28,025 bases of DNA, from assembly GCA_039588275.1 (NCBI GenBank), contig JBDHAC010000053.1, forward strand, positions 1-28,025. The letters run 5' to 3'. This DNA is from Gemmatimonadota bacterium. GTDB taxonomy: Bacteria > Gemmatimonadota > Gemmatimonadetes > Palauibacterales > Palauibacteraceae. This document shows, in pieces, positions 3,001 to 18,000 of this stretch (position 1 is its first letter; each line of letters begins with the position of its first letter). The position numbers were made by a program.

Positions 3001-6000
3001 TTCATGTTGCACGGAGTGATCGTCGCAGCGCTGACGACCCGTTGGACTGAGGGACGCCCAACGGCAGACAACAGGTCACCGGCGGACTCGGGGCTGTCCC
3101 CCGGCTAGAAGCCCTTCCCCGGCTGGGTCGGGGACGCACGAGACGGCGCTAGGTAGCCTCGGACTCCATCGGCCTTCACGCGGCTCTTGCCGGGCCGTGA
3201 TGCTTTCGCCCATGCTGAAGCATCGTCGTACCCAAGCCACAGGAGGTTTCCATGGCTCCCTCGATCCGGTTCGTAGCCGCCCTGTCCGTTTGCACCCTCC
3301 TCGCTGTACCGATCCATGCGCAGGAACTCACACCGGAGCAGCAGGAAGTGTGGACCGCTGTGGAGGCGCTGGTCGACCACTTCACCAGCGGAGAGCTAGA
3401 AGCAGCCTACGAGTACCTACACCCGGAGTTGGTGTGGTGGAACACAGGCAACTCGGTTCCCGGTAGCCGCGACGAGGCTTGGGAACTGGATAACGCCTTT
3501 GCCATGTACGCGGGCAAGTGGCTTGCTCATACCCTCACTCCTCTGGCGGTCGTTGTCTCAGGCGATGCAGCAGCCGTATACGCCTATCAGAGAGGCTTCC
3601 GAGAGGACACACCGGGAGGCAACGCAAGTTGGGCAACGATGCGTCTAGTTTTCGTTATGAAGAAGGAAGACGGTAGGTGGCTTCAACTCGCCAACTACCT
3701 GCATTTCGAGGAGAACCTGTAGCAGGGGCGGCTCCACCGGGGCCGCCCTCTCTGCATCTGGCCCTCCTTACTATGCCGTGAAACCGACTGTACCGCCCGA
3801 GCCACAGGAGGTCACCGTGAGACGCTTCCCGCTTGCCGCCGTCGGACTGCTAATCGCCGTTGCCGCCCCCCTTACGGCACAGCAAGAACCAGAAGTCCCC
3901 GACTGGGCAAAGGACCAGCTGCGGGTCTGGTATGAGGCCTTCAGCGCTGGCGATGCGGCCGGAATGGCCCGTCAATATGCGACAGACGCGGTCCTCCTGC
4001 CGCCCGGGGAAGATCCCGTTCGAGGCCGAGAGGCAATCGAGGCTTTCAATCAAGCGGCCATGGCGAACACAGACTTCTCCTGCACTGGCACCTACGATGG
4101 CTTCCAGATCATGGGGGCCATTGCCGCAGGCTGGGGACATGACCTCGAAAACTGCACAGCCACCCCGAAGTCAGGCGGACCGAGCGAAGAGATTGGGGGT
4201 CGCTGGTTGGCGTTCTATGAGCGTCAAGCTGACGGCTCGTGGCTTATCATCCGCGACACTTGGCAAGATTAGGGGAGGTTCAGGGAAGATGGAGGGCGGC
4301 TCCACCGGGGCCGCCCCTCTCACGACAACCTCATCTCTTCCGCACCCCGCCCGGCTGGGTCTGGGACGCACGAGACGGCTAGGTAGAGTCCCGCTGCTCG
4401 CTCTTGCCTACTGCCCGCCCGCTCAGCACCCTGGTCCACAGCAGAATCGCGTGTCCACTAGGCAGAAGCGGCCTCAGGGTTGGGAGAGTAGATCCGATGT
4501 GGACCGTGTGGCTTGTAATCGGGTTCGCACTAGCGATCTTCGCCGCCACAACCGTGCTCCTTTGGCCGGACCTCCGCGCTACCCCCCGTGGTTGGCAACT
4601 GCTCGCTGCATCCGGCCTCCCCCTCGCCCTGGGTGGCCTCGGCTTTGCCATCCGGTTCTGGGACCCAACGCCAGGCCCTTACCTGGCCAACGAACTCTAC
4701 CCCTTCGGTACCCTTCTGAATGCTTGGGCGGTGTCCTTCGGCTTCATGTGGCTCGCCTTCGGCCTGGCTTTCTTCGCCTTCGCCGTGCGGGGCGGACACT
4801 CTGGCCGCACCTGGCTCGCGCTTTTCGTAGCCTGGGTGATCGCGTGGTTGCCGCATGGGGTAATCGGTATCGCCTTCGCGGTTACCGGGTCCAACCAGCC
4901 CAGTATTGCGTTGTACCGCGAGTGGGGCTCCGAGTGGGGTGGTTTCCTCACTCTCCTCGGCAGCAGTGTCATCCTCCTGGCCCACTTCGTCCTGAGCGTG
5001 CTCGGTTTCGCACTGAGCGGCCTTGATCTGCGGCGTCGTCCCAGCCGCCGCCGTCCGGCCCCCCCGGTCGTTATCGAAGGGGGGGCCTGAAGCGGATTCT
5101 GTCCCACGCGCTCGCGAGATTGTCCAGCGGTCGATGTTCGGTGTGCCCCCACGTAGCCGCAAGCCGCCCTCCACGGCTGGGTCTGGGACGCACGAGACGG
5201 CTGAGGTAGGCTCGGTCGGACCCCGTCGCAACACTGCCAGATCCAGCCAGGTAGCCTGACGAAGCGCCCGCTCAGAGGGTTCTCCCCACACCGTAGAGCT
5301 TCTCCCGACTTGCAGAGGGAGAAAGCCGCATCATCGTGACTCCGTTCCGCCTGAGCTGGAGACCGAGAGGGTGGCCCCGCCCATAGGGGAGAAAGAGAGC
5401 GGTATGTCCGTTGGTCTCGTATATTAAGCCGGGCTGGCGCCCGGCGTGGCTCCTGCCCCGCACGGGCACATCGGCCCGGCCCTCCTATGCTCGAGGACCG
5501 TAACGAGAGCCGCCGACGACGGCGTAGGCGACGACGGCGTGGCATCGATAGATACACGGGGCGACCCGGAGCTCGACCGCCCCGTTTGGAGATCCGAGGA
5601 ACGCCCACGACGCGGGGTATCTCCGCTCGCGTGTGGGCTGCTGCTGGCTTGCACACTTCTCACCGCGTGTGGGGGCGTGGACGAGCCGGTTCGCGGCGTG
5701 TCGGCCGAGGCGACGACCTCTCCTTTCTCCTCAGCCGAGGAGGGTCTGCATTTCCGTGACGTTACCGGGCAGGCCGGCATCGATTTCCTGCACTCCCTCG
5801 GGGATGACGACCTCAGCAACATCGTCGAGAGCTCTGGGGGAGGGGCCGCCTTCCTGGATTTCGATGCGGATAGCCACCTTGACCTCTACATCACCAACGG
5901 CGCCTTCATCGATGGCTTCAGCAGTGGGCGGCGTCCCCGAGCCCCGTACCGGAACGGTCTATACCGGAATCGGGGAGACGGAACGTTCGAGGATGTCACT

Positions 6001-15000: not shown

Positions 15001-18000
15001 TGGAAGCAGCCAACCGGGACGGGGGATACGGTGGCCGTCGATTCGAGCTGGCGGTGCGGTCGATCGAGGGTCCGTGGGGCTCCGGCACGGGCAAGATTAC
15101 GGAGCTCGCTTTCGATGAGTCGGTGTGGGCCATCCTCGGTCCACTGCGCGGTCGCAGCGCTCATCTCGCCGAGCAAGTCGCCGCCAAGGCCCATGTCGCG
15201 CTTGTCTCGCCCTGGGCGTTCGACCCCACGCTCACGCAGGCCAACGTGCCCTGGTTCTTCCGCTGCGTGCCCGACGACCGCCAGCAAGCTGCGGCGCTCG
15301 TTCGCGAGATCCTGGGTGTCCGTGGCCTCGATCGCATCGCGGTCCTCGTCGCGGGTTCGTATGACGACCGCATGGCGGCGGCTGCCTTCGCGGCGGAGGT
15401 GGACGCCTTCGCGAAGCACACCGGTCCCTCCCACCTGGTTCGCTGGCAGCTCCCCGATAAGGCCGAAGACCTCGAGTCGCTGCTGGCCCGGCTGGAGGCC
15501 GAGGAGGTCGAGGGCATCGTGCTCTTCGAACCTGATTGGGCGACGAGAACGTTTCTTCGGATGTTGCGAACCCGAGGCATGCAGCAGCCGGTCTTCGCCC
15601 CGCTGTCCAGTGCCGATATCGCGCTCCGGGCCTCGGACCCATCGTACGTTGGGGAGCTCGTCGTGGTTGCCCCCGGCCACTGGGCCGCCGCCCAAGGCCG
15701 GGCGTTCGAGCAGGCCTTTCGGGCAGCCTACGACGTTGCGCCGAGCGCCGTGTCGGCCTACTCCCACGACGGCCTGATGGTGATCGTGGAAGCCATTCGA
15801 CGGGCCGGGCTCGACCGGCGACGAATTCGCGACGCTCTGGCGGACGTCGACTACGTGCCAGGGGTCACCGGGCGAGTTCGATTCGACGAAAAAGGGAATC
15901 GCGTGGCGCAGGTGGAGCTGATCGAGCTAGCGCGCCGGTGAATGTGCGGCTCATCGAATACTCCACCCAGAACTCGCTTCGACGCAATGTGTGGCATCGT
16001 GCCGCCCGACGAGAACGAAATGGACGGGAGGTCGTTGGGCATCGCTCAGGCCACCCGCCCACAACCGGACGAGCAACGTTCTCCAAGGCTGCGGACTGGA
16101 TCCACGCCGAGAGATCAGTCCCTGCCTCCGAGCAGCTCCTGCGGCTCGCCTCCTGTCGGCCCCATCTCGGCCACGTCCGCACTGGCGTCGAGCAATTCTC
16201 GCTCCTCCGCCATTCTGGCCAGCGCCAGCGAACCGGAGGCCGAGACTGCGCTCAGTAGAGTCGCGGAACCGATCATTGCGGCAGCCCGCAGCCAGAGGAC
16301 CGGCCCAAATCCGGCGTCCAGCTGCCACGCAGCGACCGCAAGCACGCCCAGCAGCAGACCACCCACCGCCCCCCAGGCACCGAATCGGGGAAGCGACAAC
16401 TCATCGAATCTGCGACGGCCCGCTGCGATCCGAAGCACCGTGGAGAAGATCGCACCGCCAAGGAAGCCGAGTGCCACCAGCGGCATGACCCAGTCATCGA
16501 GGGGAAATCCATCGGGAGTCCGGCTATTGCCTCCCATAACCAACCCTATCAGTAGGCCGACGGGCGCCCATCCGGCTGCCCAAGTCAGGCCCATCCCTAC
16601 TGCGGCGCGGATGCGTCTCAGCCCCTTCTTCATCGCTATCTCCCTGTACCTCGCACCTTCTACTACGGATGGTGCCGATCGGGTCCGACGATGCCCTCGT
16701 GCCAGGCCGAAGTGGGCCTCTGCTCGTCGCGGGGTGATGCCTGAGGAAACTTGGCTCAACCGCACTCTCCCCGACCCGACAAACTCCGGAGGGTCCCGAG
16801 GTCATCATCCACGGCGTCCCGCGCCCGGCTCTCGGACCAGTTGAGGCTCCTCCAATCCCCTGGTCGTTCAGGGCCCCACAGCCGCAGGAGCCGGCTCGCA
16901 AGTACGCACTGTGCTTCATCCGGCAACTCGTTGAGACGGCCGACCAGTAGCGGTGCAGCGTCGCTCCCGAGCGAGCCGAGGTAGTCCGCGTCCACCCCAC
17001 CCAACTCCGCGATTCGGTCGACATTATGACGGGCGACCAGACCGGCAGGATTGACGAGCTGCAGTGCACCCACCAGGACGAACGCCGTGACCAGGCCGCC
17101 AAACGCGAAGCGGTCGCGACGGCCGCTGAACACAGTCGCCCCGAACCAGACCACGACTACCGTCAGCCACACGAGAACCGCGGTGGCCACGACACGCAGC
17201 TCCGTGAGGCCGTAGGCGGCTTGGTAGACCAACATGCGTTGGATCGCAGAGGCCACGATGGCCAGGAGGAGAAGGAGATGGGCGCCCGCGAATCCGAAGA
17301 ACACCGAACGCGCCTTCAGACCGCGGTCATCGAGCAGGGCGTGGGTGACGAGAAGCCAGGGGATGGCGAGCGCCACGGCGGCGACGAGTTGGAAGAAGCC
17401 GGCGCGAGCGTAGGCGGCGTATGTGAGACCCGGCGTAACCTCGACCCAGGCTCCCCCTCCGAACAGGTAGCGGAACTGGACGATCACGAATCCCAGGAAG
17501 AGGAGATCCACCAGGCCCAGGGCGGTGCCCACCTCGGCGATCCCGAGAGACGGGCGGGTCGGCTGGAGGCGATGAATCCCCTCCAGTCTCGTGCCCGACG
17601 AAACGCCGATCAGGTAGCCGCAGGCGAGCCAAGACAGAACGGCGATGACCACGAGGTGCGAGGCGAAGGCCTGCAAGTCGATCCGTACGAAGTCCTCGAC
17701 CATCGTGGCGAACACCTCGTCCGCTGATATGAAGAGCGCCCCGAAGACCATCAGCGGGACGAGCGCGAGGAGCGCGCCGCCGAGGGCGGTTCGCGCCACG
17801 GTGCGTGCCGTCCCTCGTGACGTGTCCGTACCGATCTCACCCCAGTTGTGGCGGTTGATCAGTCGAGCGCTTCCGAACGCCGAGTGCAGTCCCGCACCCG
17901 CCACGGCCTCCACGACGTCCAGGACTCCGGACCGCCTGGTCCAGGCGCGCCCCGCGTTGAGAGCCGGCAGCGCGAACGCTGTGCACGCCGCCAGGAAGGT

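Follow-up and report, generated by a model that had tools for sequence, protein, structure and literature searches.

Alpha genes followed by a fused beta-gamma gene, homologous to hydrazine synthase (HZS) of anammox bacteria, have been described in non-anammox MAGs (Suarez et al. 2023). In the homologues designated clade III by Hagglund and co-workers (2025, Genome Biol Evol, PMC12758564), an FG-GAP gene precedes alpha, which is itself followed by a fused beta-gamma gene carrying a single additional haem motif; two genes for ABC binding proteins lie further downstream. Clade I is reported there to occur in strict anaerobes. Within the bCcP/MauG superfamily a distal Pro and Glu are common to CcP, MauG and BthA, bis-Fe(IV) chemistry is tied to Tyr/His ligation, and RoxA is an oxygenase without peroxidase activity. 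The product of a chorismatase is not predictable from its sequence (PMC3949708).

The operon described here lies in a window (the whole stretch analysed, 28,025 nucleotides) from a Gemmatimonadota bacterium and is almost certainly a clade III HZS-homologue operon. A first-pass annotation had regarded the module as undescribed, but the clade III gene order is already given in PMC12758564; what is added here are the chorismatase residues of one encoded protein and a second DAHP synthase that lacks its regulatory domain. Compared with the clade III rows 3_Lu_citr and 3_Ma_lute (Fig. S7) and the text of that paper, the gene order, the short one-haem alpha subunit, the extra beta-gamma haem, the two-residue gap at Ser590/Tyr591, the Trp at His144, the gamma-I motif and the N-terminal HV...CxxCH pattern are the same, whereas the Cys165 site holds Cys here and Asp in both rows. 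The main text mentions neither the phylum Gemmatimonadota nor a Reg_prop propeller, a chorismatase-like gene or a DAHP synthase. Bacteroidota-labelled homologues share the gamma-I motif of these two rows, and in a FastTree tree of 39 rows, which does not include the paper's own clade III sequences, the window protein clustered with such homologues, apart from the ten-haem clade, with 99% local support.

Operon structure

Eight tightly coupled ORFs are located on the plus strand between positions 5539 and 15941 (Table 1), and each start within the operon overlaps the preceding stop or falls at most 11 bases from it. The operon is real: all ORFs named in the first-pass annotation were recovered in the order given there, as were its Pfam domain assignments (FG-GAP/UnbV, HZS_alpha, CCP_MauG, Ribonuc_L-PSP, Peripla_BP_6 twice, DAHP_synth_1) and its counts of one CxxCH in alpha and three in beta-gamma. 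Its operon start at 5677 was not retained, as this position falls just past the lipobox Cys codon (5668-5670); the true start of the first gene is upstream, likely at GTG 5539 and possibly at 5446.

Table 1. Features of the operon and of the beta-gamma fusion, with the evidence used for each.
Feature	Position	Strand	Evidence
FG-GAP/ASPIC-UnbV (CRTAC1-family) predicted lipoprotein, ~582 aa	5539..7287	+	Pfam, sequence
HZS alpha-like subunit, 489 aa	7284..8753	+	Pfam, NCBIfam, model
HZS beta-gamma-like fusion, 669 aa, three CxxCH	8750..10759	+	Pfam, NCBIfam, model
N-terminal hydrophobic helix and extra haem motif of beta-gamma	8750..8950	+	model, hydropathy, conservation
Seven-bladed beta-propeller of beta-gamma	8951..10018	+	fold match, alignment
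Di-haem CcP/MauG-fold gamma domain	10019..10735	+	alignments to 5c2v_C and CcP, conservation
Reg_prop-type beta-propeller, exported, 425 aa	10763..12040	+	Pfam
YjgF-fold single-domain protein, cytoplasmic, 200 aa	12051..12653	+	Pfam Ribonuc_L-PSP, residue alignments
Binding protein 1, LivJ/K-type (Peripla_BP_6), exported, 440 aa	12650..13972	+	Pfam
Type I-beta DAHP synthase, 299 aa	13953..14852	+	TIGR01361, NF006421
Binding protein 2, Peripla_BP_6, exported, 361 aa	14856..15941	+	Pfam

Exported proteins and haem sites

The first protein matches FG-GAP_3 (1.7e-55) and UnbV_ASPIC (1.4e-24), and its lipobox Cys is kept in clade III-type loci. The alpha subunit consists of a signal/anchor, a six-bladed propeller and a middle domain, with its CxxCH at 8610-8624. 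It matches PD40 and HZS_alpha in Pfam (the latter at 2e-18, above the Pfam cut-off) and hydrazine_alpha in NCBIfam at 4.2e-30 (104 bits, cut-off 800), and the top fold match of its model (pLDDT 88.8) is 5c2v_A with a TM(query) of 0.76. Haem alpha-II and its C-terminal haem domain are absent from this subunit, as is an equivalent of Tyr591, a Tyr within six residues past the CxxCH being present in just 2 of 97 homologues. Cys303 of HZS alpha aligns with Arg224, and the zinc site formed by His587 and Cys303 in HZS was not found in the subunit.

The beta-gamma fusion (Pfam YVTN propeller and CCP_MauG; model pLDDT 83.4) matches hydrazine_BC at 1.2e-70 (238 bits, cut-off 1250), the HZS beta profile with 181 bits (cut-off 560) and the HZS gamma profile with 100 bits (cut-off 625), which confirms the earlier report of HZS likeness well under the NCBIfam cut-offs. 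A total of 1,665 homologues was obtained at E<=1e-30 among 8,000 scored, and three CxxCH motifs are present in 119 of the best 120. At the N-terminus, a hydrophobic helix (residues 5-41, from model and hydropathy) bears His36, conserved in 100/101 homologues, and is followed by C50-C53-H54 (8897-8911); we infer that this region is a membrane anchor with a bis-His electron-transfer haem. The propeller contains the helical insertion of HZS beta and its tunnel loop (9566-9613) and superimposes on 5c2v_B with a TM(target) of 0.90 (Z 47.4, rmsd 2.2 over 341 residues). The resemblance to HZS, earlier judged to be at domain level only, spans the whole alpha and beta folds together with this loop.

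In the gamma domain, haem gamma-I has the motif C450/C453/H454, and haem gamma-II is assigned to His578 with His639; both histidines are invariant, and His639 aligns with HZS His332, so that the Tyr/His ligation of the six-coordinate haem in MauG and BthA is not seen. The bridging Trp492 occupies the position of HZS gamma His144 and Phe507 that of Asp168 (each 101/101; the latter site is Leu instead of Phe in clade I), and Cys503 is found at the third thioether site (HZS Cys165), which is Cys in 65/101 and Asp in 36/101 homologues. Similarly, Glu253 of HZS beta is replaced by Gln281 in 101/101. Trp492 and Gln502 are invariant, and a second invariant gamma Trp is Trp630.

Compared with anammox HZS (PDB 5C2V; NF052339-NF052342), the alpha propeller and middle domain, the beta propeller with insertion and tunnel loop, the di-haem gamma domain, the bis-His gamma-II and, by sequence, the Cys at the third thioether site are shared at 23-26% identity in structural alignments. 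Haem alpha-II, Tyr591, Cys303, Glu253, Asp168 and His144 are missing, whereas a membrane-anchored haem and six partner genes are additional, and the gene order is reversed. Since Tyr591, Cys303, Glu253, Asp168 and His144 are all replaced, it is highly likely that the operon does not make hydrazine, a conclusion likewise drawn in PMC12758564.

With the bCcP/MauG superfamily (CcP, MauG, BthA, MbnH, RoxA) the protein shares the di-haem fold, the PYLHDG motif, the bridging Trp and the distal Gln (Gln502), but it lacks a distal Pro and Glu in register, and its second haem has no Tyr or Met as ligand. The distal Pro position is held by Arg506 and the residue in register with the distal Glu is non-acid, so that the distal acid of the peroxidases and MauG is not evident in the gamma-I alignment to CcP. 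Glu515, present in 80/101 homologues, is three to five residues beyond the distal Glu position and may act as a substitute; the model is of low confidence in this gamma-I distal region (residues 466-512). The bis-His and Trp/Phe layout is as in RoxA, with a spacing of 15 residues in both, although RoxA was not retrieved by sequence; a RoxA-like hydrophobic gamma-I pocket is suggested.

The Reg_prop propeller (Pfam Reg_prop 5e-10) is strongly conserved, with 41 invariant columns in 54 sequences, and follows beta-gamma in 56/56 clade III-type loci with room for it. Binding protein 1 (Peripla_BP_6, 7e-49) has a conserved N-terminal arm, and binding protein 2 (Peripla_BP_6, 2e-35) is less conserved. 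The propeller is fused to binding protein 1 in one locus (L146), and the two binding proteins are fused to each other in L074 and L079.

Chorismatase-like protein and DAHP synthase

The YjgF-fold protein, which has no signal peptide, had been labelled RidA-like. In RidA the active-site residue for imine hydrolysis is Arg105, and this position (aligned to PDB 2dyy and 3vcz) holds Ser172 here and Ser or Ala in 30/30 homologues. Tyr71, Arg79, Gly95, Arg157, Gly174, Cys180 and Glu187 are invariant in the same 30. Four of these align with Gly240, Cys327, Glu334 and Gly173 of Hyg5 (Gly95, Cys180, Glu187 and Gly174, respectively; alignment with numbering offset), and Arg157, Tyr71 and Arg79 with Arg162, Tyr215 and Arg228 of FkbO (numbering from the alignment), which have functional roles in chorismatases. 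In Hyg5, Glu334 is catalytic and Gly173, Gly240 and Cys327 are subfamily residues. The former label is misleading, as the RidA arginine is replaced and the chorismatase residues are present. The highest PDB and NCBIfam scores were nevertheless obtained with ordinary Rid proteins, chorismatases scoring lower (TIGR00004, 57 bits, cut-off 106; TIGR04444, 40.7 bits, cut-off 325).

Hyg5, FkbO and XanB2 (TIGR04444; PDB 5AG3, 5A3K, 4BPS) share the YjgF fold and counterparts of the seven residues, but Hyg5-type chorismatases, which form 3-hydroxybenzoate and pyruvate from chorismate, are three-domain chains of ~340 aa, whereas here residues of the second and third Hyg5 domains sit in one single-domain chain, and the site would therefore form between the subunits of a trimer. 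RidA imine deaminases (TIGR00004) share the fold and the C-terminal Glu and differ by the Arg to Ser replacement and by a 60-residue N-terminal extension here. The DAHP synthase is above the cut-off for TIGR01361 (368 vs 268 bits) and for NF006421. It is a second copy in the genome and has no N-terminal regulatory domain, with 49 residues before the AGPC motif, compared to 99 in the housekeeping copy on contig C68. The two enzymes look suited to making a hydroxybenzoate by way of chorismate.

A chorismatase-like gene was present in 15/16 genomes with beta-gamma (single-domain in 10, three-domain in 5) and in 7/235 others of one phylum sample, in which the genomes are related and the three-domain query was taken from a beta-gamma locus; in the sample of the window's own phylum it was present in 4/4 beta-gamma genomes. 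The Rid gene adjoins a DAHP synthase gene in 5/9 stretches without beta-gamma from the Acidobacteriota sample, and in L130 it lies close to genes for UbiA and prephenate dehydratase. Residues and co-occurrence strengthen the earlier suggestion that the module is connected with an aromatic metabolite and not with anammox.

Distribution of the module

The module was again found in 5 of 145 genomes of the order, and all eight genes occur in identical order in three relatives (L007, L011 and L014, the alpha gene being frameshifted in L011), which supports the view of a widespread, fixed module in a non-anammox host. The low frequencies first given for the RidA-like and DAHP synthase genes do not hold for this subtype, in which they occupy their slots in 29/43 and 27/30 loci with a visible slot, respectively. 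The Rid gene is missing from its slot in 14/43 clade III-type loci, and in 14/17 ten-haem (clade I-type) loci both cytoplasmic genes are absent from the interval between propeller and binding protein 2. Among the loci compared, the operon has no conserved exporter and no conserved tailoring gene downstream, and no branched-chain ABC permease or ATPase gene is conserved across 92 loci; the permease family PF02653 was not found in genome G000 (86% complete; control 12/14).

Proposed function

The best reading, held tentatively, is that of a membrane-anchored periplasmic haem complex oxidising self-made hydroxybenzoate. The six exported proteins would assemble on the HZS scaffold as a haem c complex. 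Haem gamma-I, with a His ligand and a hydrophobic pocket on its distal side, and haem alpha, with an ordinary His ligand and an open site, would be joined via the beta tunnel loop, and Trp492, the bis-His gamma-II and the bis-His haem at the N-terminus may carry electrons to the quinone pool of the membrane. In the cytoplasm, the unregulated DAHP synthase would raise the chorismate supply, and a homotrimeric mini-chorismatase would probably make hydroxybenzoate, most likely 3-hydroxybenzoate. This compound would cross the membrane, be captured by the second propeller and the orphan binding proteins, and undergo oxidation or coupling at the haem sites, where gamma-I would hold a gas ligand (O2, or NO). 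In favour of this reading are the missing permease, the fusions that join the propeller and the binding proteins, the RoxA-like layout and the haem-copper oxidase family genes present in G000. Several observations count against it: the strict anaerobes reported for clade I in PMC12758564 fit O2 chemistry poorly, clade I has Leu at the Phe507 site, the operon has no conserved exporter or tailoring gene, the cytoplasmic genes are missing from the loci counted above, and the Rid protein scores best against ordinary Rid proteins.

Somewhat doubtful, yet the strongest competitor, is a reading in which the hydroxybenzoate is not the substrate but is turned into a quinone or redox mediator for the haem complex, the complex itself acting on a compound from outside that the binding proteins capture. 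XanB2-type chorismatases supply quinone synthesis (PMC3949708), the N-terminal membrane haem suggests quinone contact, the Rid gene is found near a UbiA prenyltransferase gene in L130, in L111 it immediately follows a DHOR-type di-haem gene that lies next to a multihaem cluster, and the cytoplasmic genes are elsewhere in the genome in G548, G634 and G674; however, UbiA is adjacent in 1/21 stretches, and the interleaving of aromatic-precursor genes with binding-protein genes is left unaccounted for.

The fold, the invariant Trp492 and Gln502 and the three-haem, membrane-anchored layout would also suit a CcP-kind enzyme detoxifying peroxide or NO, quinol-fed via the N-terminal haem and with the other genes as accessories. 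This is unlikely, as the distal Pro and Glu have no counterparts in register, and a simple peroxidase would have no use for an alpha subunit, binding proteins or chorismate enzymes. Equally unlikely is a MauG/MbnH-like enzyme that generates a protein-derived cofactor by oxidative modification of a partner, for example the FG-GAP lipoprotein or the Reg_prop propeller: Trp630 and a propeller rich in invariant Trp, Tyr and acidic residues, always behind beta-gamma, are consistent with it, whereas gamma-II is His/His and not the Tyr/His needed for bis-Fe(IV) chemistry, and the chorismate genes are left unexplained. Signalling, with 3-hydroxybenzoate (named as the diffusible factor of Xanthomonas in the title of a work cited in PMC3949708) made by the cell as a diffusible signal and sensed by the sensor-type Reg_prop propeller and binding proteins, and with the haem proteins as redox read-out, is improbable, as no membrane transducer is fixed in the operon or present in the window, even though two-component or sigma-54 regulators are encoded next to 7 to 9 of 92 loci.

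That the complex works as a hydrazine synthase, or carries out the NO-to-hydroxylamine half of that reaction, is very improbable despite the whole-fold alpha and beta homology, the tunnel loop and the retained Cys165 equivalent, given the five replaced residues, NCBIfam scores that reach between an eighth and a fifth of their cut-offs, no HAO/HDH gene (PF13447) found in the 86% complete G000 by a search in which no control genome gave a match, no HAO-family match among the 15 scanned of 17 G000 ORFs with at least three haem motifs, and the same conclusion in PMC12758564.

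Operon organization and occurrence

The first-pass annotation had described an eight-gene operon, and all eight open reading frames were found, tightly spaced on the plus strand (each start overlapping or at most 11 bases from the preceding stop). Its extent needs one correction, since the proposed start at 5677 falls just after the lipobox Cys of the first gene. The genes are listed in their order, with names from Pfam and NCBIfam, in the table below. Six of the eight proteins have an export-type N-terminal hydrophobic stretch, which the YjgF-fold protein lacks; the DAHP synthase is presumably cytoplasmic, as its family would suggest. 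A promoter and terminator scan gave no signal above shuffled sequences.

The genome carrying the operon (G000) is 4.1 Mb in size and 86% complete. The closest named records were Gemmatimonadota MAGs (identity up to 87%), and one match of 86% was to a 3-kb contig labelled Ca. Sulfomarinibacteraceae; the host thus most likely belongs to Gemmatimonadota. The reported occurrence of the beta-gamma gene in 5 of 145 genomes of the order was reproduced, and 4 of 401 genomes of the phylum carry it (both counts include G000). The family is a large one, with 1,665 proteins at E ≤ 1e-30 among 8,000 scored for beta-gamma and 502 representatives at this level for alpha.

Positions of the operon genes and of further features in the window and elsewhere
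Feature	Source	Position	Strand
Eight-gene operon	window	5539-15941	+
FG-GAP/UnbV lipoprotein	window		+
Alpha-like protein	window	7284-8753	+
Beta-gamma-like fusion (three CxxCH)	window	8750-10759	+
Reg_prop propeller	window	10763-12040	+
YjgF-fold protein (200 aa)	window	12051-12653	+
Binding protein 1	window	12650-13972	+
DAHP synthase	window	13953-14852	+
Binding protein 2	window	14856-15941	+
Asparaginase-domain gene	window	12-953	+
Tandem SnoaL/DUF4440-like genes	window	3252-3722; 3778-4272	+
Small membrane paralogues	window	16115-16642; 19113-19544	-
Heavy-metal RND efflux system	window	21115-27212	+
Multihaem cytochrome cluster	G000, contig C9 (L101)	990-20540	
Multihaem cluster with DHOR di-haem gene	genome G458 (L111)	784-12763	
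Long TPR/FG-GAP gene	G000, contig C18 (L106)	84472-92785	
Divergent beta-gamma locus	genome G519 (L145)	7165-15655	
Split alpha-like gene	locus L011	3402-6983	
AsnB-like/RaSEA-like radical SAM genes	loci L022; L023; L024; L033	1-1663; 2568-4940; 4070-6374; 21625-21906	

Relationship to hydrazine synthase and to clade III homologues

Chains A, B and C of the anammox hydrazine synthase (HZS) structure 5c2v were the best or near-best PDB sequence matches (E 5.5e-24, 6.6e-45 and 6.2e-24). The predicted structures of the alpha-like and beta-gamma proteins (pLDDT 88.8 and 83.4) gave a TM score of 0.76 over the query against 5c2v_A and of 0.90 over the target against 5c2v_B, respectively, and the beta-gamma fold search yielded a Z score of 47.4 for 5c2v_B versus 40.1 for the next propeller. 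The HZS beta insertion and tunnel loop are kept in beta-gamma, of which residues 466-512 are poorly predicted. The gamma domain was compared by sequence only, the whole-model fold searches being filled by propeller matches. HZS residue numbers are from PMC12758564, bioRxiv 2023.01.22.525020 and PDB alignments, with chain offsets checked against CxxCH motifs.

Hagglund et al. 2025 divide the HZS homologues found outside anammox bacteria into four clades (I-IV). In clade III, as described in the main text, alpha is short and preceded by an FG-GAP gene, two binding-protein genes lie downstream and the beta-gamma fusion has one extra haem motif (PMC12758564). The window fits every feature listed there; homologues labelled Bacteroidota among the matches listed here share their gamma-I motif with that paper's clade III rows, with which the N-terminal haem pattern agrees as well. 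A FastTree analysis of 39 beta-gamma cores placed the window protein in a 17-row group (local support 99%), separate from the ten-haem sequences of clade I type. The module had been called undescribed, a claim that has to be withdrawn, as its gene order, short alpha and extra haem motif are already published as clade III (PMC12758564); such genes were reported earlier, with other substrates suggested, by Suarez et al. 2023 (PMC10732223). The operon is a real addition to this published kind of HZS homologue. The terms DAHP, chorism-, RidA and Gemmatimonad- are absent from the main text of PMC12758564, the Fig. 4c and supplementary tables of which may label further genes, and a link between HZS homologues and chorismate was not found in print in literature that excluded most subscription papers.

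Active-site residues and haem sites

The alpha-like subunit lacks haem alpha-II and Tyr591 (a Tyr follows the CxxCH in 2 of 97 homologues), and Arg224 aligns with alpha Cys303. All 101 aligned beta-gamma homologues have Gln281 for beta Glu253, Trp492 for gamma His144 and Phe507 for gamma Asp168. In HZS, Asp168 is 4 angstrom away from the iron and keeps the axial water in place (bioRxiv 2023.01.22.525020). The third-thioether site is kept as Cys503 (Cys in 65 and Asp in 36 of the 101), as are the gamma-II bis-His ligation residues. An HAO-family gene was not found in G000 (86% complete) by a search without positive control, and the multihaem ORFs scanned (15 of 17 in G000, besides four other proteins) gave no HAO-family match. 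The operon very probably does not encode a hydrazine synthase. The Pfam HZS_alpha domain also matches above cut-off in Bacteroides thetaiotaomicron, examined as a control genome, and is therefore not an anammox marker; HZS-like genes are at risk of being miscounted as such in metagenome surveys.

The N-terminal helix, the extra CxxCH and His36 (100 of 101 homologues) of beta-gamma suggest a membrane-anchored electron-transfer haem at the place where clade I has eight c554-like haems. In RoxA, an oxygenase of the CcP/MauG fold described as devoid of peroxidase activity, the second haem is bis-His ligated, Trp302 forms the bridge and Phe317 lies on the distal side (PMC6311187, PMC4496055). The Trp302/Phe317 spacing equals that of Trp492 and Phe507, a likeness in residue layout only; RoxA was not retrieved by the gamma-domain profile search, and clade I has Leu at the Phe507 site.

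Partner genes across loci

Genes were classified in 92 loci (11 close homologue records, the best 80 of at least 414 confirmed stretches and one phylum-sample locus), a set biased to high scores that may hold repeats; 62 were clade III-type (two assignments borderline) and 30 clade I-type. Regarding the clade III-type loci, the Reg_prop gene followed beta-gamma in all 56 with room for it, the YjgF-fold gene lay between Reg_prop and binding protein 1 in 29 of 43, 27 of 30 had the DAHP synthase gene placed between the two binding-protein genes, and one or both of these cytoplasmic-enzyme genes were present in 29 of 30. Regarding the clade I-type loci, Reg_prop followed beta-gamma in 26 of 27, but 14 of 17 had neither cytoplasmic gene between the propeller and binding protein 2; clade I thus shares the second propeller and the pair of binding proteins. 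One locus (L146) has a fusion of Reg_prop with binding protein 1, and two (L074, L079) have one that joins both binding proteins. No permease gene is conserved across the 92 loci and none was found in G000, which makes the binding proteins orphans.

AsnB-like amidotransferase and RaSEA-like radical SAM genes adjoin the module in 3-4 loci and were not found in G000 with queries from those loci, and are thus not part of the core. In L011 the alpha-like gene is distributed over three reading frames, and its beginning runs on into the frame of beta-gamma, owing either to frameshifts or to an assembly error. The long TPR/FG-GAP gene that many other loci have after binding protein 2 lies in G000 on a separate contig (44-49% identity), where a five-haem TPR protein and a second FG-GAP gene adjoin it.

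Chorismatase-like protein and DAHP synthase

The fifth protein had been named RidA-like, which holds for its YjgF fold; the Arg that RidA needs is, however, replaced by Ser172, and seven chorismatase-type residues are present instead. An alignment through a three-domain relative (L081) maps its motifs to FkbO Arg162, Tyr215 and Arg228 (numbering read from the alignment), which we take to be substrate-binding residues and which no open paper found lists together. The same alignment maps them to Hyg5 Gly173, Gly240, Cys327 and Glu334, the last identified as catalytic in PMC7170507. None of the seven varies in any of the 30 homologues. Judged from these motifs the protein looks like a mini-chorismatase. 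Hyg5 draws these residues from two domains, whereas both sets lie here in one, and the active site could form between the subunits of a YjgF trimer. Ordinary Rid proteins nevertheless outscore chorismatases in PDB and NCBIfam comparisons. An AroH-type chorismate mutase was set aside, the C-terminal strand having Glu where AroH has Arg. No open paper on a single-domain chorismatase was found, and ESM Atlas matches for the Rid and Reg_prop proteins were to unnamed clusters only.

The DAHP synthase is a second copy in G000, the housekeeping copy lying elsewhere. Some 45 residues precede the AGPC motif in this copy and in most operon homologues, versus 99 in the housekeeping copy. The operon copy therefore lacks the N-terminal regulatory domain, through which type I-beta DAHP synthases are feedback-controlled. 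In a quick tree with 20 of 43 inner branches open the operon copies did not form one clade apart from the housekeeping copy, so no co-evolution is claimed.

Among 251 genomes of the phylum of G513, presumably Acidobacteriota, 16 had beta-gamma, 14 the single-domain protein (10 of them with beta-gamma) and 8 a three-domain chorismatase-like protein (5 with beta-gamma), the latter two sets not overlapping. A chorismatase-like gene of either form was thus present in 15 of 16 beta-gamma genomes versus 7 of 235 others (Fisher test 5e-18, overstated owing to the relatedness of the genomes and to the choice of a three-domain query from a beta-gamma locus); the sole exception, G513, has its beta-gamma gene on a 3-kb contig. 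In the sample of the window's own phylum three of four beta-gamma genomes had the single-domain gene and the fourth the three-domain gene; among the 401 genomes one more carries the single-domain gene, in this case without beta-gamma and beside a DHOR-type di-haem gene. Of nine stretches (L130-L138) away from the haem genes, five have the single-domain gene adjoining one for DAHP synthase.

A large multihaem cytochrome cluster of G000 has 4 to 21 CxxCH per ORF; a similar cluster in G458 ends in a DHOR di-haem gene followed by a mini-chorismatase-like gene. In G519 the genes after a divergent two-haem beta-gamma encode a three-haem propeller protein of 1,059 aa and a three-domain chorismatase-like protein; an alpha-like gene was not detected in that stretch. 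Genome G615 (L148, L149) combines three-haem and ten-haem versions of the module with two single-domain chorismatase-like genes.

Proposed function

The preferred reading, held tentatively, is that a membrane-anchored alpha/beta-gamma complex oxidises or couples a self-made hydroxybenzoate. From the observed anatomy, residues and gene linkage, the DAHP synthase would overproduce chorismate and the chorismatase-like protein would cleave it to hydroxybenzoate, which would reach the periplasm and be caught by the propeller/binding-protein unit. The haem complex, if so assembled, would oxidise or couple it, with Trp492 and a pair of bis-His haems carrying the electrons on to the quinone pool. O2 may be available, since G000 has haem-copper oxidase family genes. 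The product of a chorismatase is, according to PMC3949708, not predictable from sequence.

That the hydroxybenzoate serves instead as a quinone or mediator precursor is possible but rather doubtful; in one of the nine stretches away from haem genes the single-domain gene lies near UbiA and prephenate dehydratase. The futalosine-pathway family PF02621 was not found in G000. A broader and quite unlikely reading would make the HZS scaffold outside anammox a two-site periplasmic biosynthetic enzyme. Gamma-I would activate NO or O2, the intermediate would travel through a tunnel gated by beta, and at haem alpha it would be coupled to an aromatic made from chorismate by a trimeric chorismatase of one domain, a form not described before. 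The resulting aromatic, N- or O-functionalised, would be common to Bacteroidota, Acidobacteriota, Gemmatimonadota and Planctomycetota, and hydrazine synthesis would on this view have arisen as a special case of older chemistry.

Detoxification of peroxide or NO is improbable: of the distal Gln/Pro/Glu triad common to CcP, MauG and BthA (PMC6405878), the window keeps the Gln, has Arg506 for the Pro and no Glu in register, for which Glu515, near the distal site in 80 of 101 homologues, may stand in. Modification of a partner protein is put equally low; the bis-Fe(IV) chemistry of MauG and BthA is described as requiring a Tyr/His haem (PMC6405878), whereas the second haem here is His/His. Signalling by a module of haem proteins and orphan binding proteins is decidedly improbable, and hydrazine synthesis, for which the scaffold is kept and Tyr591 and haem alpha-II are lost, is hardly to be expected.

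The main text of the 2025 paper describing the homologues assigned them no function (PMC12758564). The chorismatase-like gene with the unregulated DAHP synthase is a first concrete handle on it: the chorismate link makes the function of HZS relatives directly testable, bears on the origin of hydrazine synthase and, if true, would make the one-domain protein a new form of the chorismatase family.

Other features of the window

The contig opens with an asparaginase-domain gene, and two SnoaL/DUF4440-like genes in tandem precede the operon. The heavy-metal RND efflux system is of the CusCBA/CzcCBA type (TIGR00914 above cut-off) and shows no link with the operon in the other loci. Two small membrane proteins, paralogues with 55% identity over 150 aa and no Pfam family matched, flank DUF4153 and undecaprenyl-diphosphate synthase genes, with a winged-helix regulator gene adjacent.
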